64,000 nt of DNA from an uncultured virus (IMG/VR IMGVR_UViG_3300042887_002641) (Duplodnaviria; Heunggongvirae; Uroviricota; Caudoviricetes): positions 1-64,000 of IMG/VR virus record IMGVR_UViG_3300042887_002641. One strand, given 5' to 3'. A program made the translations under genes and the position numbers. The notes under the pieces are model-generated. The model ran no database searches and was not told the origin of the DNA. It was given only the letters and a program-made list of their open reading frames with translations. Position 1 is the stretch's first letter. Each line of letters opens with the position of its first letter. This document shows positions 24,571-60,702 of the stretch, piece after piece.

Positions 24571-24571
24571 T

Positions 24572-26779: not shown

Positions 26780-26780
26780 T

Positions 26781-28835
26781 ATGTCATTAACATACTCTCC
26801 AAAAATTATATTAGATGGTCTAGTTTTATGCTTAGACCCATCACAAAATAAATCATATCCAAGCGCAAATTTATCAGTAAAAGATGGTTTGATTTTGTGG
26901 TTAGATTCATCTGACGATAGTTCTTTTAGCTATAGTTCAGGAACTTTAGTAAGTCAATGGCGTGATAAAAGTGGATTAAATAATCATGCAAATCAATCCA
27001 CCGCTGCCAATCAACCAACTAGAAATTCTAGTACAAATTCTAGAAAAACAGTAACTTTTGATGGAACAAATGATTCTTTAAGTACTTCTAATTCATTAGA
27101 TTTAAGTGTTACTCATACAATATTCGCTATAGCTAGTCAAACAACAGGCACCGAGGATGCTGGATTAGTTTCTATAAATAATTCATTAAATAATGGACTT
27201 ACTTTACATAATGGAAGTACTTATTATGCATATTATGGTGATGGTGGTAAATATGCGACTAGTTCAATTACTACATCTACGACTTATATTTTTACAAAAG
27301 TTTTTAAAGGCACTTCTAGCACTACAAGGCAAGTATATTTAAATGGAACTTCTGCAACAACAACAGGTGTCATTGCAAATTCTGATGCTTCAGGTGTAAT
27401 TAGATTAGGTCAACAATCAACTTATTTAAATGGAAAGATTGCTGAAGTAATTATTTTTAATAGAGAATTAACAGCTACAGAATTAAAACAAGTCCACACA
27501 TATCTTGGACAAAAATGGGGTATATCTAATACTGATAGAAGTATAGTTGATTTAGCGGGAAATGATGACAATGGATTATTTGGCAATGGAACTGTGGCAA
27601 ATATGCCGCTTTATGATTATTATAACAAAGGAACTTTGAAATTTGATGGTTCCAATGATTATGTGAGTGTAGGAGCTAACGCAATTCTTCGGGGTAATAG
27701 TATAAGTTTAGGAGTTTTTTTTAAGACTATAAATAATGGACAATCGGTTCAATTTATAGCCGGATATGGAGATACTGGTGTACAGGGTTATTGGTTAGGA
27801 GTAGTTGGCGGACCTATACGATTTTTTGTAGGTAATGGATCAACATCTCTTCAGTTAAATTCAGGCATATCTCCTAATAATGACCAAATTTACTATGTAG
27901 TTGGCACATACGATGGAACAAATCAACGAATTTATGTTGATGGCGTATTAATGGCATCTTCGACTTCTGTCAATGGAAGTCTGAGTTATACTGGAATGAC
28001 TGATGGATTTTTGATTGGACAAGTCCAAGGATTTACTGGCGGTAGATACTTAACTGGAAACATATATGCTATGCAAGTATATAATAAAGCATTAAGTGCC
28101 GCAGAAGTATTACAAAATTATGAAGCTCAAAAGTCAAAATTTGCAAATACAATTGTACAAAATGGTCTTGTATTAAATCTTGATGCTGGCAATCCATATA
28201 GTTATGCTGGAGCAGGTACAACATGGTATGATGTTAGCGGAAATGCAATAAATGCATCTGCAAGTGGAACATCTTCTTATATTAATTTATACGGTGGTTT
28301 ATTAAGTTTTCCTAATAATAATAGTTATTATAATACTTCAACAGTTTCTGCGTTGAATTTAGGATCAGCTTCATTTAGCATGGAGTGTTGGGTTTATTTA
28401 GATGCGGCAACTGCATCAGATAATACTTATAGAGGAATAATAAGCTTAGGCACAAATTCAAGTAACTTTGTATATATTGCAAAATGGAGATCTGGTTTAT
28501 ATACAGGATTATATGTTCAGTATAAAGCAGGTGGATCAACTATTACAGGTGTTTATCAAGCTAATGAATACAATCCAGTTTCAAAATGGACTCATGTTAT
28601 AGCAACAAAATCTGGTAGTTCTTTAACTCTTTATGTGAATGGTTCTATCGTATATACAATAAATGATTTAAATACAACCTTTACTGGAAATAGCTCTGTT
28701 TATGTCGCGCAAGCGCATAGTGACGTTGCTTCTTTATATGGTTATGTTGGAGAGGCAAGAGTTTATAATATTTCTTTATCTGCTGCTCAGGTCTTGCAAA
28801 ATTACAATGCTACAAAAGGAAGATTTGGATTATAA
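26781..28835 (+). CDS. Triple LamG/concanavalin-like domain virion protein
   Basis: Repeated DGLVLCLD / DGLILWLD / NGLVLNLDA starts, and YN.ALSAA.VLQNY.A.K..F ends. Confidence 0.78.
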   Translation: MSLTYSPKIILDGLVLCLDPSQNKSYPSANLSVKDGLILWLDSSDDSSFSYSSGTLVSQWRDKSGLNNHANQSTAANQPTRNSSTNSRKTVTFDGTNDSLSTSNSLDLSVTHTIFAIASQTTGTEDAGLVSINNSLNNGLTLHNGSTYYAYYGDGGKYATSSITTSTTYIFTKVFKGTSSTTRQVYLNGTSATTTGVIANSDASGVIRLGQQSTYLNGKIAEVIIFNRELTATELKQVHTYLGQKWGISNTDRSIVDLAGNDDNGLFGNGTVANMPLYDYYNKGTLKFDGSNDYVSVGANAILRGNSISLGVFFKTINNGQSVQFIAGYGDTGVQGYWLGVVGGPIRFFVGNGSTSLQLNSGISPNNDQIYYVVGTYDGTNQRIYVDGVLMASSTSVNGSLSYTGMTDGFLIGQVQGFTGGRYLTGNIYAMQVYNKALSAAEVLQNYEAQKSKFANTIVQNGLVLNLDAGNPYSYAGAGTTWYDVSGNAINASASGTSSYINLYGGLLSFPNNNSYYNTSTVSALNLGSASFSMECWVYLDAATASDNTYRGIISLGTNSSNFVYIAKWRSGLYTGLYVQYKAGGSTITGVYQANEYNPVSKWTHVIATKSGSSLTLYVNGSIVYTINDLNTTFTGNSSVYVAQAHSDVASLYGYVGEARVYNISLSAAQVLQNYNATKGRFGL

Positions 28836-37606: not shown

Positions 37607-40600
37607 ATGGCTACATCAGCAGGAAATATTCCCATTTCAGCGACATTTGCTGCCGCGCAACTTGAAAAAGATGTGTTGTCGGCGTTGAACCGTATCCAGA
37701 GCAAGAGTAATCTTTCTCTAAATACAAGAAATTTTTCTCAACCACTGGGTAAAATTACTGGTTTAGCTAATGAATTCCAAAAGTCTTTGGAAGCTTCAAA
37801 TGCCCGTGTAGTCGCATTCGGAGCTTCTGCTGGTCTTATTTTTGCAGTTCAAAAGTCATTTTCCTCTTTAGTAAATACTACTATCGAAGTAGAAAAGTCT
37901 CTTACTGATATCAATGTAGTATTAAATACATCTTCTAAGGGTATCAAGCAATTTGGAGATCAGTTATTTAGTGTAGCAAAAAATACTGGATCGGCTTTTA
38001 AAGATGTAGCCAGTGCTGCAACAGAATTTTCAAGACAAGGTTTGGGATTAGAAGAGACATTAAAGAGAACAAGAGATGCTCTTATCTTAACTCGTCTTTC
38101 TGGTCTTGATGTCGTTTCTAGTACTGAGGCTCTTACTGCTGCTGTAAACTCATTTACAAAAGAAGCTCTCACTACAACTGATGTAGTAAATAAGTTAGCC
38201 GCCGTTGACGCTAAATTCGCAGTTAGTTCTAGAGACTTGTCCGAAGCTATTCAGCGTGTAGGTTCTTCAGCCAGCGAAGCTGGAGTTAGTTTTGATGAAT
38301 TGTTAGGTATTGTTACTTCTGTTCAGCAAACAACTGCCCGTGGTGGTGCTGTAATCGGTAACGCTTTAAAGACTATTTTTACAAGAATAGAAAGACCTCA
38401 AGTTATCAGTGATTTGAAAGACTTTGGTATTGCTGTTACTGATATTTCAGGAAATGCTTTGCCAACGATTAAAGTTATTGAAAACTTGGCTCAGTCATTT
38501 CAAAATTTAAATCCTGTTATTAAATCTCAAGTTGCTGAACTTGTTGGTGGTGTTTATCAAATTAACATTTTAAAAGCGGCATTAGCAGACGTATCAAAAC
38601 AAAATTCTGCATTCGCAGAAGCTACAAGAACTTCCTCTAAGGCAGCAGACGAAGCTATCTTAAAGAATAAAGCATTAAACGAAAGTCTTTCTGCTTTGCT
38701 TAATGAAACAACTATTAATTTTACAAAATTTGCTACCTCAATTGGAGAAGCAAGCGTTGGACCCGGAATTAGAAAAGTTTTGGGCTATATTAATTCAAGC
38801 TTAGAGTCTTACAATGAAAAAGACGCAGAGGGAGTTGGCGAAAAAATTGCGACTGGTGTATTAAGTGGTGTTACTAATTTTATAACTGGTCCCGGTTTAG
38901 GTATTGGAGCGTTTGCAATTGGAAAACTATTAGCTAACTTTACTAAATTCGCTGGAGATGCAACTAAAAATCTTTTGGGACTTAATACTCTTGGAAGACA
39001 ACAAGCTGTTTTACAATCAGAAATTGGTAAAATTCTTTCTGATAATCCCGATCTAATTAAAGACATTATTTCTGGATCTAGAACTCGCTTGCAAGTAGAG
39101 CAGCAAATAAAACAAACTCTTATAGAACAAGCTGCTTTAGCAGAACAGATTAAAAATTCTTCTATTGATATAGGCGGTAGATTTTTAGCTTCAGGCTTAA
39201 GAGTTTCTGAAAAGAATACTATTGTTGGAAGAAGAAGCGCAGAAGGGTATATTCCAGCTAAACAGCAAGCCGCAGAGATGGTTGGAGCTATGCAAGGTGG
39301 TTATACTCCCGGTAGAGTAGTTGCTGCTCCAAAGTCAATTGGCGGAATAATGAATACTGCCGAAACAGTTAAATATATTCCCGGTTTCGCTCAACCTTAT
39401 ATTCTTCCTCCTCAAGGATCTCGCGCAGCAACTCAATTAGCTTCAAAATCCATGGCTAAAAATGGAATTAATCCTTACATGGCTAAAGGATTCATTCCTA
39501 ATTTTGCTCCAAAACCTTTAACCAATCCTTCTTATGGAGATAATGATTGGTGGCTTGGGTCTGGTCTATCTGCTCCCGTTTCTCTTTCTCAAATTACAAC
39601 TGGAACATCGGCAGCTTGGAGTCAAGATAAAGGTTTTTATAAAACTGATGGTTCTGCTTTTACTGCAAATGATTTAAATACATTTGTGAGAAGAGGGGCT
39701 ACTTATGGAGACATTAGAAAGTATGTTCCAGATAGTCTTTTAAAAGATGATCCAAGATGGAAATCTGGAGCTATATCAGATTTAAACGCTATTAGACGCG
39801 ACTTTGCACCCGGAAAGAAAATAGCAGGTCAAGAAAATATCAAAGAAGGAATTAAGCAAGTTTATGATCCTTATGTTCCTCCTGCTTCAATGCTTGTATT
39901 TGATTTAGATGCAAAAAATAAGGAACTATTTGCAGATGAAAAGACCGAAGAAATATTAACTAAGAGAAAAGAAGACGGAAGAGCTTTTAAGATTAAATCT
40001 TATGCTTTAAATTCGTCTTCTCAAAACGAAGAAAAAACTAATCTAATTACACAAACAGCAGATTTCTCTCGCAGAACAACAAAACAAATTGCTAATTATA
40101 TTAGACCCGGAGAATATTCGGATGCTTCTGTTGATGAATTTTTTAATAAGGCAGGTAAAAATTATTCTGTTCTTGCTGGTACTATTTTTGAAGCTTCTAC
40201 TAATTTAGCCGCTAATTACACAAGAGATCAATCTGGTGGTGGTGTTGGAGATTTTGACGTAATTGGGGGAAATATTGGAAATGTAAGACAGTTTTTCCCC
40301 GGATTTGGAGATCAATATGGAGATTATAAATTAAGAAATAATGATGATGCTGTAAGATCGTTTATTGGTAAAGTTAAGAAGAAATTCGGCCTACAAATGG
40401 CAGAGCATTTTAAGGCTCAAGAAAAAAAGGTAAGTCAACTTAGTACTGGATTTTCAAAAGGTTTTATACCAAATTTTGCTCAAAAAGACTTTCAAACAGT
40501 AAATACTGCTAGATTAATGGGAATTAATTTAGCACAAATGGATATTAATCCCGAAACAGTATTTAGAGAGTCTTTGCAAAACGCTGTCGCTCACGGTCAA

Positions 40601-43600
40601 TCAGGACAAGAAAAGGGAGTTTTCATTGGAGTAAGCGGATATGGAAAGCCAAATGAGTTTGCAATTAGTGATGTTGGCACTGGAATGTCTCCAGAAGATG
40701 TATTCACTAAATTTTTACCATATGCTCAAACAGGAAATGAAGGAGGTAATAAAGGATTATCTGGATTTGGAATGGGAAAAGCTTCTATTTTCATGGGTTC
40801 CAAGAAGTTCCTTCTTGATACTATAAAAGAAATAAATGGTAGAAAGATAAGAACAATTGTTTCTGGAACCCCAGAAGGATGGAATAATTTCATACAAAAG
40901 GGCAAAATAAGTTTAGATGAAACTCTTTTTAATCAACCAAGAGGTGATTTAAATTTTGATGGGTTAAAAATGTTTTGGAGAGAAGTCAATCCAGAAAAAA
41001 AGAATACTCCAATAATGGGAACCACTTTCGCTGCTTCTCCTTCTAAAGAGGGTTATATATCTTATGGAAGTTATTTAGAGAATAGAGCAGGAAAAGTAGC
41101 AGAACTTCCATTTAAATTTACTACTGCTTCTTCTGGTTTATTGAGGCAAACAATTAATACTAGAAATGAAGATCCTAGCTATAGAAAATATTATTTTTCT
41201 AAATTTGATCCTAGTAAATCTTCAGTACAAAGAACTTTAACGGCAGAAGGTGGAGAAGTAGATATATTGTTTGATCCTCAAGGAGATCCTCAAAAAACTT
41301 ATGGATACGCTCAGATTCCCATGCTGTCAGAGGGAATGAAGTATGCTAACTATAAAGTAGAAGGAGTAGACTATATTCCTAAAAGTTTAATGTTTAATGT
41401 TAGGAGTAATGTTGGTGCAGGTGATCCAAATTATCCTTGGAATACTGACAGAACTGAGTTAAGAGGGCCATTAGGCAAAATGGCAAAATCTGCCGTACAG
41501 GATTTAGCTGCACAATTAAAACGCGCTCAAGAAGATAGCGTTAGGAATGTCCCTTCTTATCAAATGGGTTCTGATCTTGAGCTTCTTGATGTTTCTTCTT
41601 CTTTGCCTAAAGGAACAATGGAGAGTATTGCTGGAAATCCTAAATTCCAAAATTTTGGTGCTGCTTTAAAAAGCGTTTTTGAACAAACAATTGGACAGGC
41701 TTCTGAGATTTTTGATCCAAGAATGGCTAATGCTTCATTTAGAGGTTTAGCTGTTGGAGCTAATTGGATGGGTTTAAATACTGCTTCATCAAAAGAAGTA
41801 GGTACGAAATCTATAGTTGAACCATTTGCTCATGTAGAGACAGTTATAGATAGAATTAGAAAGATTTCTCAAGAAAAAGCTAAACAAGGAAAGAAAATAA
41901 AATCAGTTGGTAAATTTAGAGACATCTATTCTAGAGAAATATTAGATACTGTTTTTCATGAAGCCGCTCACCAAGTTAATAGAACAGAAGGAGAAGCTCA
42001 TGCTAAATCAATGGCAAGCGTTTGGGCAGCTAACGCAGAGCAAGTGGGTTCTTATTTAAAAGAAATTCAAGGTTCTCTGACTCCCGAGTTGATGAACTTC
42101 ATCATTTCTACTTATAAGCAAAACAAATCTATTATTGATGAGGGCAAAGCTTCAAAGTTTAGAGATTTCGTATCTAATTATTCATCGGGTCATATTCCTA
42201 ACTTTGCTAGAATGCAATTAGGAAAACCCGGATTTTTTGGAACATTTTCTGCATTAAGAGGAAATCTAGGAGTAAAACAATTCCCAGATAACGAATCATC
42301 TACAAAATCTAATGTAGCAAATGAATACTTAGCTTCACAAGAACTTGGCCAGATGATTGATGCAGAACAATTAAACCCAATTTTTGAAACTCCTAAGATT
42401 TACGGAGCATTGTCAAAAGCTATACAAAAGAGTGCTATTTATAAAGAGATTTTTTCTGGAAAAACAGCACAAGAAATTTCTGAAAATTTAGACGAATATA
42501 CTGGAGAAAGAAGAGGATTTGTCCAACTCGCAGAAATCATAGCCGACAGAGCTACTTCTCAAATTAATGCAGGAGGTAGAATGGAGGCAGTTGATTTAAC
42601 TCAAAACCTTGGCAATATGATGTATAATCAAGTAGCTGAAGGTATCTTGTCGAAGATTTCTAGAAGAAATTATGAGAAATTACTAAAGTCTATTGAATCA
42701 AAAGACAACAAAGATGCAGAAGCTCAAATTGACAGAATTTTAAGCTCTATTTTTACTAAAGGTGGTAAAGTTAGTATAGTTGATACAGGAATGTTTAATC
42801 TAGGAAGCGGCCTAGCTTCTAAGAGAAAATCTTCTTTAGGTAGTCTCGGATACGAAGATGATTTTAGATTTGCTTCAGGTTATATTCCTAATTTTAATCC
42901 AGTTATGGAGGCAATGAATAGAGAGATGTCTGCTGGATATTCTGCTTCTCAGGTTAGATTAGGTAGAAGCGATAAATTAAAGACTAGCTTCAATCCAATG
43001 GGATTGGGTGTTTATAATTCTACAGAAGGATCTCTTAATAATGGAATTGGCTTGGCAGAGAAAGCTGGAATAGACCCTAAGACAAAAGGAATGTCTGCAA
43101 GAGGACATATTCCTAATTTTGCTGAGTTTGGGGGCGCAGATGCTTTTATATTAATTGCTGCTTTTGGAACTCTTAGTACTGCTTTAAAAGAAGTTGCAGG
43201 AAGCCTTAGAACTTTAAAAGGTAGTTCTGATACTTTAATTAAATCAAATGCTTCTGCTGCCGCTTCTTATTCTCAACAGATAGGACAAATACCAAAAGAC
43301 TTCAAAAAGAGTCAAAAAGCAATATCCGATGAGATTGAAAGAACATTTACAAATGTAAATAAAACGACTTTAAAGCTTCAAGGCACTGCTACTGGTCCTT
43401 TAGTAGGGAAAACAACTAGAGATCAATTTGGTATTGTTACAAGCTCTCCTGTTGCTGCGTCTCCAGAACAAGTAGCTAGATTAGAAGAGTTAAGAAAACA
43501 ACAATCTGAACTAAGAAAAAAAGCAAGAGAAGAATTATCTGCTGCTAGAGAAGGACGAAGACAAGCGCAAGAAAATATAAGACAGGCTCAAGCTCCTGTA

Positions 43601-46600
43601 TTTTCAAGAGCAAGTTTTGCGTCTGGAGGGCAAGCAGATAGATACGTTAGAGGGCTTGGCACTCAAATTGGTTTAATTGGTAGTGTAGCTTCAAATATTG
43701 GTGGACAATTCATATCTCCAGAAAATAAAACAGGAAGAGCCGCAGCTTCTGGCTTAGGAGACATAGCTTCTTTTGCTGGCTTAGGGGCACAGTTTGGCCC
43801 TTACGGAGCAATAGCAGGAGTAATTTTAGGAGCTGGATCTGCTCTTATTAAATTAAAAGATGCCAAAGCTGAAGAGGCTATTGATAAAATTAATAAATCT
43901 TTGGGAGAGACAAAAGAAAGATCTGCTGAGTTTTCTGGTGCCGCTCAAAATTACTCTACTTCTTTAGAAGGTTTACAAAACGCTTTAAATGATCCTAAGA
44001 CAAAGCCTGAAGCACTATTAAAGTTTCAAAATAATTTAACAGAAGCTTTAAATAGTATTCCTGAACAGTTCAGAAGTAAAGTGTTAGCCGCAGGGACGGA
44101 GATAAGTAAGGTTACTGAAGCTATTGGTGAAGTAAATAAAGAAATGGCCAATACGCAAAAGAATTTAGAGCGACAATTAGCTATCACGCAATTTATTGAA
44201 AAGCAATCTTCTTTTTTGGGTAGAAGTAGTTTAAAGCCAAAAGATCAAGAAGTGTTTAATAGATTATTCACCTCTTCTATTAGATCAGAAGATATAACTA
44301 AAAAATTTACTGGAGAAAATGCCGCAGCAGACTTTTCTAAATTTATTGATTCTTTAAAATCTCAAGCAATTATTTATAGTCAAGAGACTATTGGGCCTTA
44401 TGGTTCCCGCATAGGCGCACAACCAATGGTTAATAAAGAGAGCGTAGAAAATATAAAAGCTCAGTTAAAACAGAATACAGTTATTCCTGAAGAAATAATT
44501 GATCAGCTTGACAAAGCTTTTGCTGAATTTGATACTGTAGCATTAAGTTCTTTATTCGACTCGCTCAAAAAAGCAGGAATAGACGTTTTTGATTTCGCCA
44601 AAAGATCGAAAAACCTTGGAGAAATTTTAGCAGAAAACACTAAGAGACTTAAAGAAAATGAAGAAGTTCTTAAATCTTTAAATTCTCAATACAATAGCAT
44701 CAATCTTCAAATCTCTAATCAAATTGATATAGAAAAAAATCGCGCTCAAACTATTAGAGAGATAAATAAAATTCAAGCAGAAGGCGCGGTTTCAATCCAA
44801 AGAGCTAGAGTTAAAGGTCTTTTAGAATCAGCTACTCCATTTATTAGCGAGTCTTCAAAATCGGACATCCAAAATCAATTAGATCTAAATGAGATAACTT
44901 CTAGACAAAATTCTAAAATTCAAGAGGCTTCTAATAAACTTTTAGATTCTTTCTCAAATACGATAATTAAAAAATCAGAAGAAGCTAGATCAAAAGTTAT
45001 TCCTGCTATTGAGGGTGCCAAGTCTGAAAATGCTATTCAACAAGAAAGAGCCGTCTTCCAAAATCAAATTCAGAAATTAACTCCTTTAATTGCTGAATCA
45101 TTAAAACAAATAAATTCTGGTGGTAATATAGGAGATATACAAACAAATTTAATAAATAACATAAGAGGATTTTCTCAATTCAAGCCAGAAGAAAGAGATG
45201 TTCTTGTGCAAACTCTTGAAGTATCTTTTGGAGAGTTTCAAAATACTCTCGCCGAAATAAAAGCTCAAGGCGATATAGATATTCAAATTCAAGAAGCCCA
45301 AAGAGAATATCAAAAACAGTCTTTGGAGCTAAATCAAAGACTTTCTTTTGCTGGTGGCGCACAAGCTTTGAGTTCCACTGGTAAAGCGGGGGTTTCTGAA
45401 CTTTTTGATAATATTTCTGAATTAGTTTCAGAATTTAGACAAACTAACGTTGCTGGAAATGCTGCTCAAAGGGGATCTAGTGCTTTTAAATTGCTTGATG
45501 TATTAACTAATCAATTACAATTAAATAGAAGCATTGGTCAACCAAGCGGATTCATTGGACCCAGTGCCAGTGGAAGTGCTTTTAATAATCAAGTGTCTTC
45601 TGATTTAAATCCTTTGGTAGGAACAGCTATTGCTGGCAGAGTGCAGCAAATAAGAGAAAGCGTAGATTTAGCTCGCAGAGTTACTGAAATTCAAATGGGT
45701 AAACCAACAGCCGGTACTGCTTTAGGAACGGCTTTTGACCAAGCAAAAGAAGGCGCAGTTAAAACTGCTTTAGATCAAATTACTTCTCAGTTTAAGTTAG
45801 AGAATATGGGGAACTATCTTGACGTATTACAACAAGAAGCTAGATTCTTAAATGACCTAACACAAGATCAAAATTCTATTTTAGAAAAAACATTGCCAAC
45901 TACTATAAATGAGAACTTTAATAGAGTTATAACAGAACAAGTAGGCAGCAAATTAGATAGCTTAACTACTTCATTACAGGGAGTTATTAACAAATTAGGA
46001 GTTGCTACAAAAAGAAACGCTCTTGAATCCGAAATGTTTAATAAGCTTCCTGCTGACGTATCTCCAGCAGATAGACAAGCAATATTGAATAGAATAGCTG
46101 CGTCACAAAATTTAAGAGATACAGAAGGGTCCATATCTATGCAGACTAACAACGCCGAAGCAGGAATAAGACTAGCAAGAGAAAAAGAGATTAAAAAATT
46201 ACAAGATTATTTTAAGAGTTTTGATTTAGTAACAGTAACCGGAGCAGAAGGAGCTTTTACAGAAGCTTATAAAAATTTAATTGGAGATCCATCTAAAGTT
46301 TCAAGAGATGATTATGGGAATATTACTGGAGGTGTTAGCTATGGAAAAGGCTATTACGGGACTGGTACTTCTAGAGAAACTATAAATAATGCAGTTGTGT
46401 TGCAGGAAGATCTAGGCTCTTCCTATGAAGATCAATTAAGAAATCAAAAAAGATTAGAGCAATTAATCGCTTCACGCGAAAAATCAATTGGTCGTCCAGA
46501 GATTAACCTCTCAGGAACCTATAAAGGATTAACTCAAGATATAAATAGAGATTTTAAAGTCTCTATGGCAGAGGAGACTGTAAAGTCTATTAAATCTGCA

Positions 46601-48478
46601 CAAGAAGAGTTAAGAAGATTAGACTCGGCTTCTCCTTTAATGTCAGTAGGCAATAAATCAACTGCGCCTTCTTTACAAGATATCATTGATAAATATGGTT
46701 TAGCAGATCAAGGCGGTGCTAAAAGAAATTTACCAACTCAATTAGCTCAAGGAAGAGCAAATCTAGATAGTATCAATAATTTGCTTTTGGCTAGATTAGA
46801 AAATGATAAACAGCTTGTCGATCTTAACGAAAAAGTAAATAACCTTTTAAAAGAAGACCTAAATGATACAAAGAAAAGAGAAGACCTAATTAAACTTCAG
46901 ACTGAGCTAAGAAAGAAAACTTTAGAGCAAGAAGGTAAGGTCGCAGAAGAGTTGTATAATTTATATTACAAAGGTTCGTTTGGAGAAACTTTCTTTAAGG
47001 ATGAAAGAGCGGCTTTTGCTAATGCTAGAATTGAAAATGAAGCTCGTCAAGGAAGAGTAGCTATTGGAGCTATAACAGAAAAAAATACTACTTACAATAG
47101 AGCCGATTTTGCTAGAGATACTGGTCAATTGATCGACACTTTCCAAACTGATTTCAAATCAGGTATTGCTAGTGCATTTGGTGAAGCTATCAAAGGAACT
47201 AAAACTCTTAAGGATGCATTTAGAGATATGTTCCAAGGCATCTTAAATAGAATGCTTGATAAGTCTTTAGAGATGGGAGTTGATGCTTTATTTGCTTTTG
47301 GTAAAGCTGCAACTGGCAGAAAAGATGGTGGATTAATCAGAGGTTATAATTCTGGAGGTATGGTTGTTGGTGGCTCTGGAATGAAAGATGATGTACCCGC
47401 TATGATGAGTGGCGGCGAATACGTTATCAAGAAGTCTTCTGTTAAAAAATACGGTTCTGATTATTTAAGAGCCTTGAATGGCGGACTTGTTCCCAAATAT
47501 GCAGTAGGTGGGTTCTCAATGGGTCCATTACAAAATGAGTTCTTATATGATAATCCTGATCGTCCAACTTCTGGGGAGTTTGCTGTTGATTCTAGACTAT
47601 CAGCCGCAGCTTTAACTGACGAGAATAATCCTCAAAATAGATTAAGACAAGATCGCTATGAAAAACTTGATCAATACTTGCAAGACAGATCGCAGTATGA
47701 GAAAGACAAACAGCAAGCTATTAAAAATTACAAAAATCAAGTAAATAGCACTTTCTATTCAGGTTTAACTGCTGCTGCTGTTCAATTAGGTGCTGCTGGT
47801 CTTACGGTTGGAGCAGCTAATATGAGAACTAATGCAGCAACATCTGCTGCAAGAGGTCTAGAACCCGGAGGCAACTTAACTCAAGCTCAATTAAACGCTC
47901 AATATGCAAGAAATCTTAGGTCAAATGGCGGCTATATAGCTAGATTTGCTGGCGGTGGATCAACAGGTAAAGATAATATTCCTGCCTTGTTAATGGGCGG
48001 CGAATATGTCATGAACAAGAAAGCTGTAGATATGTACGGCAGAGACTTCATGAATCAATTGAATACTGGTACATTGCCTAAGTATGCCAGCGGAGGAATG
48101 GTTGGTACAAGTTATACAGCAGGTCAAAATACTCCTGAATCTAGCGTGACCGAACTAGTCGCTGCTCTTAATACATTGAATGAAAACCTTTCCAAGGGCA
48201 ATGACATCACCCAAGCTGAGTCAGGTAAAATTTCTGCTGCTGGAGCAAATCAAGAATCTGGAATGTCTGTAGTTAATAACATTTCAATTAATGTTGCTCA
48301 AAGCGGCGAAGTCACTTCTGAAGCTAATGCTACCACTCAAAATGGTGGCTCCAATACTAATAAAGATCAGAACAATATTCAAAACAATGCTAAACTCGCT
48401 GAACTACTCAGAAGCAAAGTCGTTGAAGTATTGGTCGAGCAGAAGAGACCCGGAGGATTACTTTACGCCAGCAGATAA
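37607..48478 (+). CDS. Tape measure protein with embedded enzyme-like modules
   Basis: N-terminal TP901-type TMP domain (LTDINVV...TEFSRQG...SFDELLG...TARGGAVIGNALKTIFTRI), long A/E/K/Q helical regions and hydrophobic segments. C-terminal lambda-H-like DxVPAMxxGGEYV modules. The central region has nuclease, GHKL, HExxH and kinase motifs. Confidence 0.9.
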   Translation: MATSAGNIPISATFAAAQLEKDVLSALNRIQSKSNLSLNTRNFSQPLGKITGLANEFQKSLEASNARVVAFGASAGLIFAVQKSFSSLVNTTIEVEKSLTDINVVLNTSSKGIKQFGDQLFSVAKNTGSAFKDVASAATEFSRQGLGLEETLKRTRDALILTRLSGLDVVSSTEALTAAVNSFTKEALTTTDVVNKLAAVDAKFAVSSRDLSEAIQRVGSSASEAGVSFDELLGIVTSVQQTTARGGAVIGNALKTIFTRIERPQVISDLKDFGIAVTDISGNALPTIKVIENLAQSFQNLNPVIKSQVAELVGGVYQINILKAALADVSKQNSAFAEATRTSSKAADEAILKNKALNESLSALLNETTINFTKFATSIGEASVGPGIRKVLGYINSSLESYNEKDAEGVGEKIATGVLSGVTNFITGPGLGIGAFAIGKLLANFTKFAGDATKNLLGLNTLGRQQAVLQSEIGKILSDNPDLIKDIISGSRTRLQVEQQIKQTLIEQAALAEQIKNSSIDIGGRFLASGLRVSEKNTIVGRRSAEGYIPAKQQAAEMVGAMQGGYTPGRVVAAPKSIGGIMNTAETVKYIPGFAQPYILPPQGSRAATQLASKSMAKNGINPYMAKGFIPNFAPKPLTNPSYGDNDWWLGSGLSAPVSLSQITTGTSAAWSQDKGFYKTDGSAFTANDLNTFVRRGATYGDIRKYVPDSLLKDDPRWKSGAISDLNAIRRDFAPGKKIAGQENIKEGIKQVYDPYVPPASMLVFDLDAKNKELFADEKTEEILTKRKEDGRAFKIKSYALNSSSQNEEKTNLITQTADFSRRTTKQIANYIRPGEYSDASVDEFFNKAGKNYSVLAGTIFEASTNLAANYTRDQSGGGVGDFDVIGGNIGNVRQFFPGFGDQYGDYKLRNNDDAVRSFIGKVKKKFGLQMAEHFKAQEKKVSQLSTGFSKGFIPNFAQKDFQTVNTARLMGINLAQMDINPETVFRESLQNAVAHGQSGQEKGVFIGVSGYGKPNEFAISDVGTGMSPEDVFTKFLPYAQTGNEGGNKGLSGFGMGKASIFMGSKKFLLDTIKEINGRKIRTIVSGTPEGWNNFIQKGKISLDETLFNQPRGDLNFDGLKMFWREVNPEKKNTPIMGTTFAASPSKEGYISYGSYLENRAGKVAELPFKFTTASSGLLRQTINTRNEDPSYRKYYFSKFDPSKSSVQRTLTAEGGEVDILFDPQGDPQKTYGYAQIPMLSEGMKYANYKVEGVDYIPKSLMFNVRSNVGAGDPNYPWNTDRTELRGPLGKMAKSAVQDLAAQLKRAQEDSVRNVPSYQMGSDLELLDVSSSLPKGTMESIAGNPKFQNFGAALKSVFEQTIGQASEIFDPRMANASFRGLAVGANWMGLNTASSKEVGTKSIVEPFAHVETVIDRIRKISQEKAKQGKKIKSVGKFRDIYSREILDTVFHEAAHQVNRTEGEAHAKSMASVWAANAEQVGSYLKEIQGSLTPELMNFIISTYKQNKSIIDEGKASKFRDFVSNYSSGHIPNFARMQLGKPGFFGTFSALRGNLGVKQFPDNESSTKSNVANEYLASQELGQMIDAEQLNPIFETPKIYGALSKAIQKSAIYKEIFSGKTAQEISENLDEYTGERRGFVQLAEIIADRATSQINAGGRMEAVDLTQNLGNMMYNQVAEGILSKISRRNYEKLLKSIESKDNKDAEAQIDRILSSIFTKGGKVSIVDTGMFNLGSGLASKRKSSLGSLGYEDDFRFASGYIPNFNPVMEAMNREMSAGYSASQVRLGRSDKLKTSFNPMGLGVYNSTEGSLNNGIGLAEKAGIDPKTKGMSARGHIPNFAEFGGADAFILIAAFGTLSTALKEVAGSLRTLKGSSDTLIKSNASAAASYSQQIGQIPKDFKKSQKAISDEIERTFTNVNKTTLKLQGTATGPLVGKTTRDQFGIVTSSPVAASPEQVARLEELRKQQSELRKKAREELSAAREGRRQAQENIRQAQAPVFSRASFASGGQADRYVRGLGTQIGLIGSVASNIGGQFISPENKTGRAAASGLGDIASFAGLGAQFGPYGAIAGVILGAGSALIKLKDAKAEEAIDKINKSLGETKERSAEFSGAAQNYSTSLEGLQNALNDPKTKPEALLKFQNNLTEALNSIPEQFRSKVLAAGTEISKVTEAIGEVNKEMANTQKNLERQLAITQFIEKQSSFLGRSSLKPKDQEVFNRLFTSSIRSEDITKKFTGENAAADFSKFIDSLKSQAIIYSQETIGPYGSRIGAQPMVNKESVENIKAQLKQNTVIPEEIIDQLDKAFAEFDTVALSSLFDSLKKAGIDVFDFAKRSKNLGEILAENTKRLKENEEVLKSLNSQYNSINLQISNQIDIEKNRAQTIREINKIQAEGAVSIQRARVKGLLESATPFISESSKSDIQNQLDLNEITSRQNSKIQEASNKLLDSFSNTIIKKSEEARSKVIPAIEGAKSENAIQQERAVFQNQIQKLTPLIAESLKQINSGGNIGDIQTNLINNIRGFSQFKPEERDVLVQTLEVSFGEFQNTLAEIKAQGDIDIQIQEAQREYQKQSLELNQRLSFAGGAQALSSTGKAGVSELFDNISELVSEFRQTNVAGNAAQRGSSAFKLLDVLTNQLQLNRSIGQPSGFIGPSASGSAFNNQVSSDLNPLVGTAIAGRVQQIRESVDLARRVTEIQMGKPTAGTALGTAFDQAKEGAVKTALDQITSQFKLENMGNYLDVLQQEARFLNDLTQDQNSILEKTLPTTINENFNRVITEQVGSKLDSLTTSLQGVINKLGVATKRNALESEMFNKLPADVSPADRQAILNRIAASQNLRDTEGSISMQTNNAEAGIRLAREKEIKKLQDYFKSFDLVTVTGAEGAFTEAYKNLIGDPSKVSRDDYGNITGGVSYGKGYYGTGTSRETINNAVVLQEDLGSSYEDQLRNQKRLEQLIASREKSIGRPEINLSGTYKGLTQDINRDFKVSMAEETVKSIKSAQEELRRLDSASPLMSVGNKSTAPSLQDIIDKYGLADQGGAKRNLPTQLAQGRANLDSINNLLLARLENDKQLVDLNEKVNNLLKEDLNDTKKREDLIKLQTELRKKTLEQEGKVAEELYNLYYKGSFGETFFKDERAAFANARIENEARQGRVAIGAITEKNTTYNRADFARDTGQLIDTFQTDFKSGIASAFGEAIKGTKTLKDAFRDMFQGILNRMLDKSLEMGVDALFAFGKAATGRKDGGLIRGYNSGGMVVGGSGMKDDVPAMMSGGEYVIKKSSVKKYGSDYLRALNGGLVPKYAVGGFSMGPLQNEFLYDNPDRPTSGEFAVDSRLSAAALTDENNPQNRLRQDRYEKLDQYLQDRSQYEKDKQQAIKNYKNQVNSTFYSGLTAAAVQLGAAGLTVGAANMRTNAATSAARGLEPGGNLTQAQLNAQYARNLRSNGGYIARFAGGGSTGKDNIPALLMGGEYVMNKKAVDMYGRDFMNQLNTGTLPKYASGGMVGTSYTAGQNTPESSVTELVAALNTLNENLSKGNDITQAESGKISAAGANQESGMSVVNNISINVAQSGEVTSEANATTQNGGSNTNKDQNNIQNNAKLAELLRSKVVEVLVEQKRPGGLLYASR

Positions 48479-49285
48479 TTCTTTAATCTTAGAATCTATA
48501 GTTAGTATAGCCTGATTATAGATTTGCTCTATATTGTTGTCTTTGGCTAATGGTAGATTAAGAAAAGGAGTCTTGTCTACCTTTACAATGAAGGCTTGAT
48601 TCAGGTATTCCTTGCCCGTAGCCTTATTTAATGTAATGCGGTATCGTTTTATATAGACTTCTCCTGTAAGGAAGTCGTCTTTAATCTTTTCATTTAACAT
48701 TACAAGAGTAGAAGCGTTTTCTCGCTTTACGTCCAATACAGAAAAAAACTTAAGAGCCTTCTTGTTGTCTTTACCCAAAATCAAGCTTACTTTTGCGCCT
48801 TTACCAGATCCGCCTTCTAATTCTGCTTCAGTAAAATTTTGAGTAAATTTTCCATTGTTAATTAAATGGAGTTCAGTAATACCGCCATCACTATTGACAG
48901 CTTTAATTTGAAGGACAGCTTTTTGGTTTTTATCTATGGACGATTCAAAGTAAGAATTTTTACCAATAGTTACATATTCATTTACTTTGTATCCAGATCC
49001 AGATTCAGTAATGTCATTAATTAATGCAGCATAGTAAAGAGCAAAATAGCAATCAATAGTGTCTCCATCTAAGATTAAATCTTTAATTGTGCCGCTAAAT
49101 TTAATTAATAAACTTGATTCTACAGTAAAAGGCTTGCTGTAGTTAATGACGGCAGTTCGCACAACAGAGAACTTCTCTGGGTTGCCAATAATTTCTATTT
49201 CTTTACTGGGTTCTATTGTAGACCAGTTTGCTAGGTTGTTAGAATATATGTATTCGTCGCCAAAAGAAAATAATACATCCGTCAT
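48458..49285 (-). CDS. Hypothetical tail-associated protein
   Basis: ESGSGY...NNG...GGSGKGA Gly-rich structural repeats. Last gene of the tail-tip operon, with a 3' overlap with the TMP. Confidence 0.55.
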   Translation of the reverse strand: MTDVLFSFGDEYIYSNNLANWSTIEPSKEIEIIGNPEKFSVVRTAVINYSKPFTVESSLLIKFSGTIKDLILDGDTIDCYFALYYAALINDITESGSGYKVNEYVTIGKNSYFESSIDKNQKAVLQIKAVNSDGGITELHLINNGKFTQNFTEAELEGGSGKGAKVSLILGKDNKKALKFFSVLDVKRENASTLVMLNEKIKDDFLTGEVYIKRYRITLNKATGKEYLNQAFIVKVDKTPFLNLPLAKDNNIEQIYNQAILTIDSKIKELSAGVK

Positions 49286-49288
49286 ATG

Positions 49289-49987
49289 TTACATTATATT
49301 GCCAATCACTGCTTTTACAATAGGATGTTTTGCGCTTTCTGATTCATATCCACTTATTTTAATCTCTGGATCTGAAATATAACCACAACCTAATTTCTCC
49401 ATTGTTAAAGAAAGTAGCTCTCCTTTTGAGCCTCTAACAGCATGAGCAGAAGCGGTTAAGCCGTAGTTGTATTCGGTTTCTTCAGGAGGAGAGATGGTGA
49501 CGCAAGGAACAGGTTCTGAGCATCCATATCCGGGGTCAATAATTTGTATATCAACAATATTATGAAAGGCGTTAAACTTGTTTATCTTTTCGCAATCATG
49601 AATGTGTTGCATTTCAGTTCTACAAGAGAGTTCTCTTAGAAACTTTTTGTTATTTTTAATGACTTCTGTTTGTTTATTGTTGGGAGTCTCTAGAGAGATA
49701 ATGAAGTCAATATCAAGCTTCTGCAATAAAGTGTTTCTTTTTGCAGTCATTTCTTTAACTTTTTTATCAATGAGATTTTCTTTTTTCCATATAGAGTTTC
49801 CATCAGGAAGAAATTTTCTATGTTCTAATATGCTTTGGTCAATGTGTTTTTCTAAAGGTACAATGTAGTCTACAACTTCATACTCTATTCCTACAAGCTT
49901 TAGGCGATCTAAATTTTCCATCAAGTCGAGAGAAGATTGGAGGTATTTGTGACTGCCATTTATAAAATATACGATGTAGTGTTTCAT
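49289..49987 (-). CDS. Tail-fibre-assembly-chaperone-like protein with DPGYG-type repeats
   Basis: KRNTLLQKLD...KKFLREL resembles fibre chaperone helices. IIDPGYG and LGCGY..DP.I repeats follow. Confidence 0.45.
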   Translation of the reverse strand: MKHYIVYFINGSHKYLQSSLDLMENLDRLKLVGIEYEVVDYIVPLEKHIDQSILEHRKFLPDGNSIWKKENLIDKKVKEMTAKRNTLLQKLDIDFIISLETPNNKQTEVIKNNKKFLRELSCRTEMQHIHDCEKINKFNAFHNIVDIQIIDPGYGCSEPVPCVTISPPEETEYNYGLTASAHAVRGSKGELLSLTMEKLGCGYISDPEIKISGYESESAKHPIVKAVIGNIM

Positions 49988-49988
49988 T

Positions 49989-52900
49989 TTAGTAAGTTAT
50001 TACTACTGATAGTTCTAGTGCTTGGATATGGAAATTATATAATGGAAATGATCTATTGTTAGATCTTGCGGACAAATGTGCAAAAGCTAAGTTTTTAGCA
50101 CTCTTGAATTTCCAGAAAGTTGGATTAGTTATTGATGCATCAGCAGAATAAGAAGAAGCGTTGGCGTAATAATTTGCATAAGGAACATTTTTTAATGTAA
50201 CCTTAATTATGTTATCGTCTCCCGGTATTATTTGGGTTTTATCTACTTCACTAGCTACAAAATCTTCTCCAATAAAGCAATATACCTTTATAGCTTTTGT
50301 TTTGTTGACGCTTCCAATTGTAAAGAAAATAGACAAAGATTCATTTTCTAATACTGGAACTCCAGCATAGAAAGAAGAATTTGCTATACCAAAATTAAAC
50401 GAATTAGCTGTTTGCTGATTTATAGTATAAACAGTGAAATTGTTTGGTTCTGCATTTATCAACATTTGAACATTTTTAGTATTGACTCCAAGTTCAGAAA
50501 AGTTGTTTTCAGGAGTAACGTTTATAGCATTGAAAGATGAATTGAGCAATCCATCATTTAATAAACTATTAAAATTGCTTTTTGCATTTTCTTCAGTGTT
50601 TGAATTTGAGGCGTTTATAGGAATTAAATAAGTATTTGTATAATCAGGAATTAAACTCTTTATATTTCCAGTAAACGTGCTATTAGTTAATCTTGTTATA
50701 GAGATGTCGAAAAACTCTTCGTTTCCTTCGCCAAAAGAGCTATTTGTTATTTTAGCTTTAGACTTAAAAGCATTAGCTGTTTCTGATTCTACTGCTCTTA
50801 AAGAAACAGTATTTGCGTCAGGAACTAAAGCTCTTGTAAAAATTTTATTGCCATTTAAAACATAAGCTCTCTTGCCAGTGGGTATTTTCGGTGATAATGA
50901 TGCATTTGGTATATTATCTCTATTTTGTAAAGAGAGTTTGTAATAAGCCATAGTGCCGTCTGGATCTGAAGATAATACTCTATCATCTTTAGCTCCTGCT
51001 GCTAGGTTTGCGTTTGTAGTAGGCTTATAAATTACGCTCTTTCTAGAAATTGCATAAGCTGGTGAAGGGAGCGTATTTACGCTAGTATCAAATATATTTT
51101 CAGTTAGTACAGTTTTATTAATTGTAAAATGGAGATATCTAGTATCAGCATCTTTTAATACAGACTCTAGAGAGAAAGATAATGGAGTAGATGATTCTTG
51201 TTTTATAACAATTGGGTCACTAATTTGAGGGTAAATTTTACCTATGTTATTATCTTTATCAATGAAAGAAGAATAATAGTCTAAGATATTTCTTGCTGTT
51301 GCTGCATTTGAGTTAAACTGCCAAGCGAACATGAATGAATCTACAGCTATCAAATAAGCATTATATTGAGTAGAATCAAATCCCTTACCGTTGTCATCGC
51401 TTAAGTCATTGAAATTAAATATAGATTGGTTATTTGATATTGTTATAAAGTGAGAGTCAATGATTTCTTTTCCAGTATTATCGTTAACAGACAATGGGCT
51501 TCCATCAGGATTGTGATTTATTGAATTTTTTCCAAATTCAAATATATTTTCACTAGGCATTAGTAATAGATAAAAAGCGTTAATAAAAGAACTCGCTGTA
51601 TCTTGCTGAATAGTAAATTTTAATCTATTTGATCCTTGGCTTGTAACAATAGAGTAGGTCGCTCTTGTGTCTTTTAAAATTGCATTTAAAGATTTTTTTA
51701 AATCAGCATCTTGATTGTCGTAAGTTACTAGTAAAAATCCATCTACATTCTTAAAATCATTAGAAGTAGATTTCATTCCAACATCTGTAAATGTCATTTT
51801 ATCAATTGCCAAAGAGAAGTTCCTATACTTAGCAAAAACATTTGAAGTTTTGTAGTTGTATATATTGTCACTAGTTTGATCTTCATCAAACGTTAAATAG
51901 TCTTCCCAGTTTGAAACATTAAGGTACTTGTTGTAAACAGTGCCGAAAGCGTCTTTTGTGTCTACTTTCTCTGGTATTATTGCTATTCTATAAGGGTAAT
52001 CAAGATTGTTGAATTTATTTGGATTCTTTATGAATTGCAAGGGGATGTTGAACGATAAAGACTCTGGAGGTTTAACAGATTGAATTTGAGAAGGTGCTGT
52101 TGACTGAAAGTATTGTGCTTTCGTTAAATCAATTGGAGAGGTAAAAGCATAAACTTTATTATTCAAAGTGATAGATGAACTTGTATTTACATCGTCATAA
52201 GTAATCGCAACAACTGGAGAGACAAATAATTCATTTGAGTTTTGAGAATTTGAAGCTTCAACATAAGTTAATGGAGAGCTATTATTAATATTTGCTCCAT
52301 AAATTCTTATAGAACCTTTGATGTTGCTCTTGTCTAGAACAGTGTTTACATAAGATTCATAAATATCGATTGGAACAAATTTAAAATCACTAGAGCTATT
52401 TGGGTTAAAGTCTGATCCATAAAAGGCTTTGTTAAATATCTTGAAGCCTATCGTAGTGTCTTTTATAGAAGAGTCATAAAAGATTTCAATCAATACTTTG
52501 CTTTGATCTATTACTCCATTAGCCTCTGCAACGCCAAGAGTAAATAATGCTCTTGAAGGCGCAGAAGCTTCTGGTGCTGGTGGTTTTGCTGGTGTGATAT
52601 TTAATCCAGATTCTATTTGAGCATACTTTAAGTGATACATCTGCGAGCCAATTACTGTATAATTACTTCCCTCTGTAGACTCTTGTATTCTAAATACTCT
52701 ATAAAAATCATAATCGCTATCAGTAGATCCATTAAGGTTTCCAGAGTTTTCTAAAGCCCAAGTTATTGATTTAGGAGACATTCCAGACGCTCCAGTAAAA
52801 TAAGATAGTCCAGTTACGTTTAATCCAGAAGCCATTACTGGTGCTAGACCCGTAATTCTAATTGAATCATAATATTGACCAGTAATTAAGTTGCCGCTTC

Positions 52901-57359: not shown

Positions 57360-57360
57360 T

Positions 57361-58086
57361 TTATATATTATTTATTTGAGCTTTTACGTCTGCTGCCGTT
57401 GATTTATTATCTAACTCAATGTTATTGACAGATACTTCAACTGTCTGAGATCCTATTTTCATTCTACCGTAACCAATTGGAACTGGACCGCCTTCTCCAA
57501 GAATGTTAGAAGGTCCATCAAATAAGTAGTTTGGCTTGCTGCCGTCTTCTTGTATTTTTCTAAAATCATCAAATTTTGGAGGCGACATCATTAATAATGT
57601 AATACCTGTTACAGCTAATCCTATACCTGCTCCAATCATCGCTCCTGCAATCGTTGCGCTTGTTGTAGAACCAGCAACAAAGCCTAATGCAGCAGGTGCA
57701 AAAACGCCTGTAGCTATTAACAAAACGCCAAGAACTAAAGCTAAGACTCCTTTGGTTGTATTGTTTCCGCCTCCCCCACCAGCACCCCTAATAATTGGAA
57801 CGATATCTAAGGTTTCTAGCTTTTCATTAATCATTACTAATTCAGAATTGAGAATAGAGTCTGGTTTTTCTAGAGAAATATTTTCTGGATTCATTATTTC
57901 TCTCTTATTAACAAGCACTTTGTACTCTACGCTTTTTTCTGCTGCTCCTATTAGATATTTTAAGAGCTTGCCTTTAGACAAGACCTGAATAGCTCGCAAT
58001 GCTTCCTTTATGGAATTTACTTTTAAATTCCAACTTTCTCTTCCTACTTGTTCTGCTATTTCTCCGTGTAAGGTAATACTAGTCAT
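57361..58086 (-). CDS. Tail assembly protein, lambda gpI-like (ubiquitin-like N-domain)
   Basis: I.LHGE...IVPIIRGAGG, a hydrophobic G/A segment, and YLFDG..N...EGGPVPIGYGRMKIGS. Confidence 0.88.
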   Translation of the reverse strand: MTSITLHGEIAEQVGRESWNLKVNSIKEALRAIQVLSKGKLLKYLIGAAEKSVEYKVLVNKREIMNPENISLEKPDSILNSELVMINEKLETLDIVPIIRGAGGGGGNNTTKGVLALVLGVLLIATGVFAPAALGFVAGSTTSATIAGAMIGAGIGLAVTGITLLMMSPPKFDDFRKIQEDGSKPNYLFDGPSNILGEGGPVPIGYGRMKIGSQTVEVSVNNIELDNKSTAADVKAQINNI

Positions 58087-60698: not shown

Positions 60699-60702
60699 AG
60701 GA

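Follow-up and report, generated by a model that had tools for sequence, protein, structure and literature searches.

Whole modules of a siphovirus tape measure protein are exchanged at a conserved joint peptide

The DNA analysed here (hereafter the window) is a stretch of 64,000 nucleotides (nt), positions 1 to 64,000 of the IMG/VR record IMGVR_UViG_3300042887_002641 from an uncultured virus of the Caudoviricetes. It carries the gene of a giant tape measure protein (TMP) in which a short peptide, here called the joint, recurs between successive modules. We show that near-identical phages swap entire modules, with the joint as the exact border of exchange, and that the joint is a family-wide feature of related TMPs. 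In the window TMP, the exchange concerns two optional modules, the cassettes s2 and s3, and the remaining joint-bordered parts are constant. The arrangement is related to known TMP-fused enzymes and to polyvalent proteins, and the cassette s2, predicted to join a GHKL ATPase to a zincin, is new here. For the role of the cassettes we see an even chance that they travel in the tail within the TMP and enter the host together with it, cuts at the joints probably setting them free.

Taken as a whole, the window looks like a single structural region of a phage. The phage is a large, uncultured siphovirus whose tail tip is of lambda type, and the product of 37607-48478 is its TP901-type TMP, because TMP models match it and lambda-like M, L, K, I and J genes converge on it. 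Specifically, PF10145 (PhageMin_Tail) matched amino acids (aa) 124-310 with 98.9 bits (cut-off, 33.2), TIGR01760 (tape_meas_TP901) matched aa 80-399 with 111.4 bits (cut-off, 28.8), and TMP families of PHROGs matched the first 546 aa (down to E = 8e-52) and the last 923 aa (2.6e-23). A reading made earlier by a model from the letters and open reading frames (ORFs), hereafter the sequence-only reading, had already named this product a TMP, in agreement with these family matches at both ends. An NCBIfam scan of TMP segments gave no match besides the TMP model, no Pfam or PHROG domain was found in aa 1841-2700, and Pfam scans detected no cell-wall hydrolase family in the TMP of 37607-48478. Among isolated phages, the best match of the N core was the TMP of Bacillus phage Staley with 28% identity. 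With aa 547-1840, tblastn against 50,697 phage records gave no match among isolated phages, no culturable relative standing in INPHARED, and a sequence search of the PDB returned nothing at E <= 1. The parts of the TMP are as follows.

37607..48478, plus strand: TMP gene, 3,623 aa (single ORF; PF10145, TIGR01760 and TMP PHROGs)
37607..39244, plus strand: constant N core, aa 1-546 (TMP PHROGs; many invariant columns)
39245..39262, plus strand: joint 0, degenerate GYIPAK, aa 547-552 (G547 and P550 invariant in 23/23 relatives)
39263..39487, plus strand: s0, constant unit, aa 553-627 (invariant columns in 23/23; cluster M1 in 56 relatives)
39488..39505, plus strand: joint 1, GFIPNF, aa 628-633 (regular expression and codon comparison)
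39506..40459, plus strand: s1, first module, aa 634-951 (conserved across the family; cluster M3)
40178..40372, plus strand: PD-(D/E)xK-like signature inside s1, aa 858-922 (71 non-redundant first modules)
40460..40477, plus strand: joint 2, GFIPNF, aa 952-957, left edge of the optional slot (DNA and protein homology end there)
40478..42187, plus strand: s2, optional cassette, aa 958-1527 (predicted GHKL ATPase and zincin)
40478..41539, plus strand: predicted GHKL ATPase and transducer domain, aa 958-1311 (VIA, Foldseek and conserved motifs)
41573..42061, plus strand: predicted Wss1/SprT-like zincin domain, aa 1323-1485, with HEAAH at nt 41957-41971 (VIA and conserved HExxH)
42188..42205, plus strand: joint 3, GHIPNF, aa 1528-1533 (DNA homology ends there)
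42206..42877, plus strand: s3, optional cassette, aa 1534-1757 (kinase-like motif pattern; cluster M9)
42878..42895, plus strand: joint 4, GYIPNF, aa 1758-1763, right edge of the optional slot (DNA homology resumes there)
42896..43102, plus strand: M0, constant unit, aa 1764-1832 (cluster M0 in 106/120 listed relatives)
43103..43120, plus strand: joint 5, GHIPNF, aa 1833-1838 (regular expression and codon comparison)
43121..47278, plus strand: long body, aa 1839-3224 (opens with a hydrophobic stretch)
47279..47512, plus strand: C-terminal unit 1, aa 3225-3302, ending in GLVPKYAVGG (matches TMP gp16 of PDB 8zdo, E = 1.2e-7)
47861..48097, plus strand: C-terminal unit 2, aa 3419-3497, ending in GTLPKYASGG (translated ORF; hidden Markov model, HMM, of the unit)

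A regular-expression scan of the translated ORF located G[FYH]IPNF at aa 628, 952, 1528, 1758 and 1833 (nt 39488, 40460, 42188, 42878 and 43103) and a degenerate GYIPAK at aa 547 (nt 39245), with joint-to-joint intervals of about 318, 570, 224 and 69 aa; both the positions and the interval lengths are those given by the sequence-only reading. From the composition of the TMP, 0.00012 copies of G[FYH]IPNF would be expected by chance, and none was found elsewhere in the window in all six frames. Looser copies are present in the C-terminal region, namely GLVPKY at aa 3293 and GTLPKY at aa 3488. A search with aa 547-1840 yielded 178 related proteins, and the analyses below use 120 listed ones of 2.0-5.4 thousand aa, all of which except P0014 carry a PF10145 annotation. 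The joint peptide of the family is [SA]-x-G-[FYLH]-[IV]-P-N-[FY]-A. In 228 distinct 28-residue windows from relatives, picked for containing IPNF, G was found at -2 in 224 and [SA] at -4 in 203, with the consensus [SA]-x-G-[FYLH]-I-P-N-F-A. Note that VPNF is nearly as frequent as IPNF in relatives, and that the site of the degenerate joint 0 is GF[IV]PNF in most of them.

Module exchange was visible in both protein and DNA comparisons. When the 120 proteins were cut at G-x-[IVLM]-P-[NKRS]-[FY], the pieces had recurring discrete lengths, formed 110 clusters, and occurred in varying order and number among the relatives. In pairs of close relatives, protein identity runs up to the motif and then stops, or begins at the motif; identity to P0003, for example, ends at the joint 2 motif. 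BLAST alignments ended within 3 aa of a joint in 15,317 of 22,533 cases (68%), as compared with 1,017 of 22,533 (4.5%) for random positions, where the 22,533 ends are those inside the module region from all pairs and are not independent, many of the proteins being related. When unique alignment ends were counted, 3,038 of 5,295 lay within 10 aa of a joint. In DNA, the comparison with L008, whose identity is 91.5% before the gap and 96.7% after it, shows homology stopping with the final base of joint 3 (nt 42205) and being regained at nt 42869, nine bases ahead of joint 4, s3 being replaced in L008. Against L007, homology ends at nt 42207 and resumes at nt 42869. Against L009, homology ends at nt 40481 and resumes at nt 42878, indicating that s2 and s3 together are replaced there by one other module. 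The proposals of the sequence-only reading that the motif delimits modules and is the place of their swapping are thus borne out, since the identity and number of modules vary between constant flanks in relatives, and both alignment ends and DNA breakpoints fall at the joint.

It was also asked by the sequence-only reading whether the region might be an assembly chimera. Six separate IMG/VR contigs carry the whole 1,294-aa region at 99-100% identity (one of them from query residue 20 onwards), so that a chimera is ruled out. The region was further found at 81-92% identity on three other IMG/VR contigs, and the 90% cluster of the window TMP has 19 member sequences on 7 contigs.

Exchanges with such borders could in principle reflect the DNA rather than the protein. 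That is, the motif might be kept mainly as a DNA microhomology that promotes in-frame recombination, with no role for the peptide; the exchanges at the joint are indeed codon-precise, and the gene's own copies have runs such as ATT CCT AAT TTT in common. However, exact DNA runs between copies are short, about 12-15 nt, and the mid-region joints of four genomes retain G, [IV], P, N and F in 19 of 19 cases despite variation at synonymous sites (GGA/GGT/GGG, CCT/CCA/CCC, AAT/AAC and TTT/TTC). The joint residues are fixed even across relatives with 24-37% overall identity. Because the residues are fixed while the codons differ, the peptide, and not the DNA, is under selection, and we disfavour the microhomology explanation as highly improbable.

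The relatives share a ground plan, which reads N core, joint, s0, joint, first module, joint, slot, M0, joint, hydrophobic stretch, long body and C-terminal units; the number of optional modules in the slot ranges from 0 to about 15, and a joint closes each of them. Conserved columns were taken from an alignment of 23 diverse family members, and invariant columns were found across the N core, s0 (aa 547-633) and M0 (aa 1758-1838). In s0, G565, Y566, N583, A585, E586, V588, K589, P592, G593, P601 and P602, among others, were invariant in 23/23, as were E1773, G1777, L1791, N1796, P1797, G1799 and N1804 in M0. Hydrophobic windows were found at aa 1838-1865 (nt 43118-43201), directly after the last joint, and at aa 2063-2083 (nt 43793-43855). 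The first module is likewise part of the plan. Its cluster M3 (29 proteins, including s1) was linked by hhalign to M5 (99%) and M8 (90%), M8 to M17 and M17 to M25 (97% each), and in 75 of the 106 listed proteins with M0 the module in first position comes from this group of M3, M5, M8, M17 and M25; in 17 of the 106 it comes from a second related group (M6, M41 and M48). Since s0, M0 and the first module belong to the ground plan, only aa 958-1757 (s2 and s3) are optional.

Between s0 and M0, the 106 proteins have one module in 60, two in 9, three in 10, four in 16, five in 6 and six in 2 cases, and 8, 9 and 16 modules in one protein each; these modules come from 75 clusters. Close relatives such as P0023 have s1 alone in this span. 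The slots of other relatives hold SNase, CI-type HTH, PcfJ and DUF7178 domains (Pfam), and most cassettes of relatives have no Pfam family match. As a separate observation, P0103 (5,354 aa) has 16 modules between s0 and the last M0 and contains two M0-like units. These counts bear on two further claims. The two short modules at aa 553-627 and 1764-1832, which had been counted as cargo, turned out to be constant units, s0 being invariant in 23/23 and M0 occurring in 106/120. The idea of a polyprotein magazine keeps its exchangeable modules, with the cargo narrowed to aa 958-1757.

We then consider what the modules may be. The cassette s2 is predicted to be a GHKL ATPase with a transducer domain fused to a Wss1/SprT-like HExxH zincin. 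Its AlphaFold2 (AF2) model is good, with a predicted local distance difference test score (pLDDT) of 78.6 and a predicted TM-score (pTM) of 0.65 from a 26-row alignment. In a VIA-align comparison of this model with 48,161 chains, model residues 1-354 matched Topo II (4gfh_F; Z 13.2, root-mean-square deviation 4.7, 257 residues aligned), ParE (12.8), TRAP1 (12.6), MutL (11.9) and MORC2 (10.0), and Foldseek ranked Hsp90/TRAP1 first (E = 6.7e-10). The modelled fold of aa 958-1311 thereby resembles that of GHKL/transducer proteins (Topo II/GyrB/ParE, Hsp90, MutL and MORC), and that of aa 1323-1485 moderately resembles Wss1/SPRTN-type zincins. For the latter part, model residues 366-528 matched Wss1 5xbn_A with Z 7.6 (root-mean-square deviation 3.1, 111 of 128 aligned), 5ln5_A with 7.1 and 6mdx_A ('protease dependent DPC repair') with 5.8, and YbeY (6.9 and 6.5) and aminopeptidases (6.4) matched about equally well; a VIA Z under 8 can reflect a common arrangement, so that the zincin match is a middling one.

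The residues expected of such enzymes are conserved. In 65 of 65 sequences E988, Q991, N992, D1022, G1026, G1055, Y1276, P1277, R1282, H1451, E1452 and H1455 were invariant, and G1024 (98%) and K1058 (97%) were nearly so; E1463 was present in 77%. The GHKL N box (ExxxN), G1 box (DxGxG) and G2 box (GxxGxG-type) are thus conserved in s2, as is the HExxH of the zincin, with a third ligand shortly downstream. The GHKL and HExxH parts recognised by the sequence-only reading therefore stand, by both invariant motifs and the VIA and Foldseek matches. In Pfam, s2 itself scored below the HATPase cut-offs (HATPase_c_3/HATPase_c, 24.2 vs 25 and 23.8 vs 26.4), and relatives above them include P0158 (57.7 bits) and P0125 (42.8 bits). 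No MPTase (PF18818-type) match was found in the Pfam scan of s2.

Among the 120 listed proteins, s2 occurs in P0001 and P0002 only. A copy with 48% identity is present in P0121 (4,397 aa), where it is flanked by joints in a different module order. A HMMER search found 199 relatives of s2 at E <= 0.001 and 40 at E <= 1e-10, nearly all in giant proteins of 1.2-5.9 thousand aa that have neither the joint nor this N core. When 21 of the relatives were scanned with Pfam, HATPase families were found in 15 (E <= 0.001), at least 10 of which were over a cut-off; one of the 21 carries LPD38 and Helicase_C_4, one carries ART-PolyVal, and two are TMPs. One s2 relative has a WLM match below the cut-off (20 vs 26). 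The fusion of a GHKL ATPase to a Wss1/SprT-like domain was absent from the solved structures matched, from the Pfam results and from the main text of PMC5512222.

For the first module s1, alignment of 71 non-redundant first modules revealed a candidate nuclease signature. G858, F861, E862, K908 and K922 are 100% conserved, D906 is D in 93% and otherwise E, D884 is D or E in 94%, and D882 is D in 82%; the order E...D...(D/E)xK is suggestive of a PD-(D/E)xK nuclease. The AF2 model of s1 has a mean pLDDT of 49.7, and the signature part is below 50. The N-terminal part of s1 (aa ~638-738, nt 39518-39820) is modelled confidently (pLDDT 82-92) and found no match in two fold searches with the whole s1 model. 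In these searches, VIA over 48,161 chains gave a best Z of 4.7, with none at 5 or above and not on the signature part, and the best Foldseek hit had E = 1.3, again not on the signature part. A 10-sequence profile of s1 against the PDB gave chance hits only (E >= 0.13), and an Atlas search gave no usable match. Of the nuclease-like cargo module that the sequence-only reading saw here, the signature is retained in 71 sequences; its status as cargo is lost to the ground plan (75/106), and the fold searches were null.

The cassette s3 belongs to cluster M9, which occurs in 11 of the listed proteins at differing positions. In four of four diverse copies G1539, G1542, G1545, F1547, K1557, E1573, D1663, N1670, D1726 and G1728 are invariant, and the kinase-pattern residues among them are also invariant in nine of nine closer copies. 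Their order, a Gly-rich loop, Lys, Glu, a catalytic Asp with Asn, and DxG, is a kinase pattern. The only kinase family that Pfam returned at E <= 10 was ABC1 (E = 0.2, in one of four members), an s3 profile against the PDB gave no kinase, its best hit being designed TIM barrels over a 20-residue stretch (E = 0.0012), which we take as chance, and nothing was found by an Atlas search. No free-standing s3 relatives of 123-392 aa were found with a word-index search, which has limited reach. The kinase-like description of s3 in the sequence-only reading accordingly holds for the motif pattern, invariant in 4/4, and not for any kinase match in Pfam, the PDB or Atlas.

Even if these modules are real enzymes, they might serve tail assembly, envelope penetration or a periplasmic stage rather than act as effectors in the cytoplasm. 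The passenger domains of TMPs known from T5 pb2 (PMC10038345) and from the phages listed in PMC12617516 are, in the sections covered, mostly muralytic, and the first module, being conserved throughout the family, would suit a core mechanical or entry role. On the other hand, the folds predicted for s2 act on nucleic acid-bound or cytoplasmic substrates and need ATP, relatives of s2 are found in polyvalent proteins that also contain ART and helicase domains, SNase and CI-type HTH domains fill other slots, and Pfam finds no cell-wall hydrolase family in the window TMP. We regard this explanation as unlikely.

The joint is not confined to the middle of the TMP. Both C-terminal units end in [IVL]-P-K-Y-A-x-G-G, and the HMM of the unit matched lambda gpH at residues 732-782 with 16.8 bits, as compared with at most 3.8 bits in 400 shuffles. 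Because the C-terminal units match gp16 of 8zdo and gpH 732-782, the mid-region joint is, as far as these sequence matches go, one version of a joint that is widespread in TMPs. In its maturation to gpH* and gpHC, lambda gpH is shortened by about 14 kDa within the Gly-rich C-terminal region (PMC12617516, citing Tsui and Hendrix 1983); the 732-782 unit is flanked by FATGG and YATGG, and the region of the cut lies close to it. In contrast to the window TMP, gpH has one such unit and no cargo, and its joint, [FY]AxGG, is without the [IV]PN part. In phage T5, the covered part of PMC10038345 reports that pb2 is cut after R1127 into pb2* and pb2C, between a segment of hydrophobic residues and a metallopeptidase motif. 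Here too the window TMP differs, pb2 having one site, at its C-terminal end.

Two further systems are close to the cassettes themselves. In the Thermus phage P23-45, the N-terminal part of the 5,002-aa TMP gp96 is a virion RNA polymerase that is active and present in virions (PMC10770324, in the sections covered). Like the window TMP, gp96 is a giant TMP with a cytoplasm-acting enzyme in the same chain. Unlike it, gp96 has one fixed N-terminal enzyme, no repeated joint, array or exchange being described in the sections covered, and this enzyme has no sequence relation to the cargo of the window TMP. Polyvalent proteins, which occur in phages and conjugative elements, are giant chains of unrelated enzyme domains (Iyer et al. 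2017, PMC5512222). By prediction they accompany the DNA into the recipient, and a zincin protease within the chain is often expected to split them; the concept provides a rationale for delivering several enzymes as a single chain that later comes apart. The likeness is that s2 relatives occur in proteins with LPD38 and ART-PolyVal, and that the window TMP joins GHKL ATPase, zincin, kinase-like and PD-(D/E)xK-like parts, as predicted above. However, it is the tail ruler that acts as carrier in this case, rather than a protein of the head or of conjugation; a single conserved joint borders the modules, and a built-in protease is missing from most family members. The words 'tape', 'GHKL', 'Hsp90', 'SprT' and 'Wss1' do not occur in the main text of PMC5512222. 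No published description of motif-fenced cassettes in a TMP was found, in a literature where subscription journals were thinly covered.

Under the reading to which we give even chances, the modules would be built into the tail as part of the TMP and would leave it with the TMP at DNA ejection, so that ready-made enzymes would be in the host just ahead of the genome. The joints would be the sites where the chain is cut into separate proteins, by a protease that would, for most of the family, be other than the built-in zincin. That zincin was considered as the general joint protease and ruled out, because most relatives are without it; among the 120 listed proteins P0001 and P0002 carry it, and P0121 does so besides. 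Self-cleavage driven by Asn at P-N-[FY] was also set aside, the C-terminal joints having K/R in place of N and the T5 site having no Asn.

Several points weigh against delivery followed by cutting. It is unlikely that a folded 570-aa module would fit three abreast in the lumen of the tail tube. The authors of the P23-45 study propose, in the sections covered of PMC10770324, that the TMP-fused enzyme stays with the TMP pore, which needs no cut. The cut in lambda gpH is placed only to the Gly-rich C-terminal region in the covered part of PMC12617516, and the likeness of the T5 site, FVPR/AEGG with the slash at the cut, to G-x-[IV]-P-[NK]-[FY]-A-x-G-G was drawn by eye only, T5 pb2 not scoring above 400 shuffled controls with the unit HMM. 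As for the cargo, the nuclease call for s1 comes from a conserved signature with null fold searches, and the kinase call for s3 from a motif pattern with null family and structure searches. Finally, the 120 relatives were chosen by likeness to aa 547-1840, and the family counts apply to that sample.

The P23-45 proposal favours a different explanation, in which the joints stay uncut and the modules remain tethered to the TMP, working at the mouth of its channel. The joint would then serve as a flexible hinge or as the peptide on which an assembly factor docks, for instance a tail chaperone or the tube, and would let the ruler pass over a folded insert. Consistent with this, the joints flanking s1 are unstructured in the AF2 model of s1 (pLDDT about 25-31, no secondary structure), and the joint also flanks s0, M0 and the C-terminal units, which are not cargo, as would fit a general structural role. 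Nevertheless, a plain hinge would not need nine nearly invariant residues, and the T5 and lambda TMPs, the two examined, are both cut according to the covered sections of PMC10038345 and PMC12617516. We consider tethering possible, at clearly less than even chances. A prediction of M0 with both its joints as a trimer scored 0.00 against a mark of 0.42, the partner's own fold being uncertain, so that this score speaks neither for nor against a trimer.

Stronger than delivery with cuts as such is the proposal that the joint is a universal address, every copy of which is cut by a dedicated phage or host protease, the tail then being a magazine that frees enzymes ahead of the DNA. The freed set would comprise the GHKL ATPase-SprT-like protease fusion, a minimal kinase and the conserved nuclease-like module. 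Loading and release would extend to whatever protein sits between two joints, and the system would therefore amount to plug-and-play delivery with at least 75 cassettes. We put this forward tentatively, as a speculation that may well prove wrong.

Delivery of the modules would mean that, besides a ruler and channel former, a siphophage tail contains a variable set of enzymes made in advance, which would meet the host before phage gene expression, when restriction and other defences act. Many cassettes of the family are uncharacterised (75 clusters in this sample), and their benefit under selection should lie in counter-defence or takeover. Because a short peptide marks the cassette borders, each cassette can be cloned and tested alone. 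The arrangement also links two ideas that have been separate, TMP-fused enzymes as in P23-45 and polyvalent proteins, and the joint family provides a candidate sequence for the cut in lambda gpH. The predicted GHKL ATPase-Wss1/SprT-like protease would form a conserved unit of two enzymes, found again in 199 giant proteins.

The tail tip genes near the TMP gene were assigned with PHROGs (31, 32, 30, 18 and 14 over the block 49989-61257) and Pfam (Phage-tail_3, Prok-JAB with NlpC/P60, Phage_tail_L and Phage_min_tail), as follows.

49989-57359, minus strand: J-like tail tip gene (PHROG/Pfam)
57361-58086, minus strand: I-like tail tip gene (PHROG/Pfam)
58079-58825, minus strand: K-like gene (PHROG/Pfam), adjoining the other K-like gene
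58819-59577, minus strand: K-like gene (PHROG/Pfam)
59577-60698, minus strand: L-like tail tip gene (PHROG/Pfam)
60703-61257, minus strand: M-like tail tip gene (PHROG/Pfam)

The TMP gene (plus strand) and the tail tip genes (minus strand) converge, which differs from the usual collinear lambda order, and two small unassigned minus-strand ORFs, 48458-49285 and 49289-49987, lie between them. Of the two adjoining gpK-like genes, one has Prok-JAB and NlpC/P60 and the other NlpC/P60 only, so that predicted peptidase domains are encoded next to a TMP for which processing is possible.

No tRNA genes were found in the window. Upstream of the TMP gene, two giant plus-strand ORFs, 6256-15450 and 15455-22174 (3,064 and 2,239 aa), have no Pfam family and show repeated matches to the tail-fibre PHROGs 9942 and 18345, in up to 8 stretches, and probably encode very long fibres built of repeats. 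At 22468-28835 (plus strand), three consecutive proteins of ~700 aa carry CBM_4_9 or Laminin_G_3 (ConA-like lectin) domains, one of them in three copies, and are likely to be receptor-binding or decoration proteins. Among the head genes, 1555-1920 (plus strand) encodes a small protein matching DUF5856 and PHROG 858 ('starvation-inducible transcriptional regulator', Dps-like).

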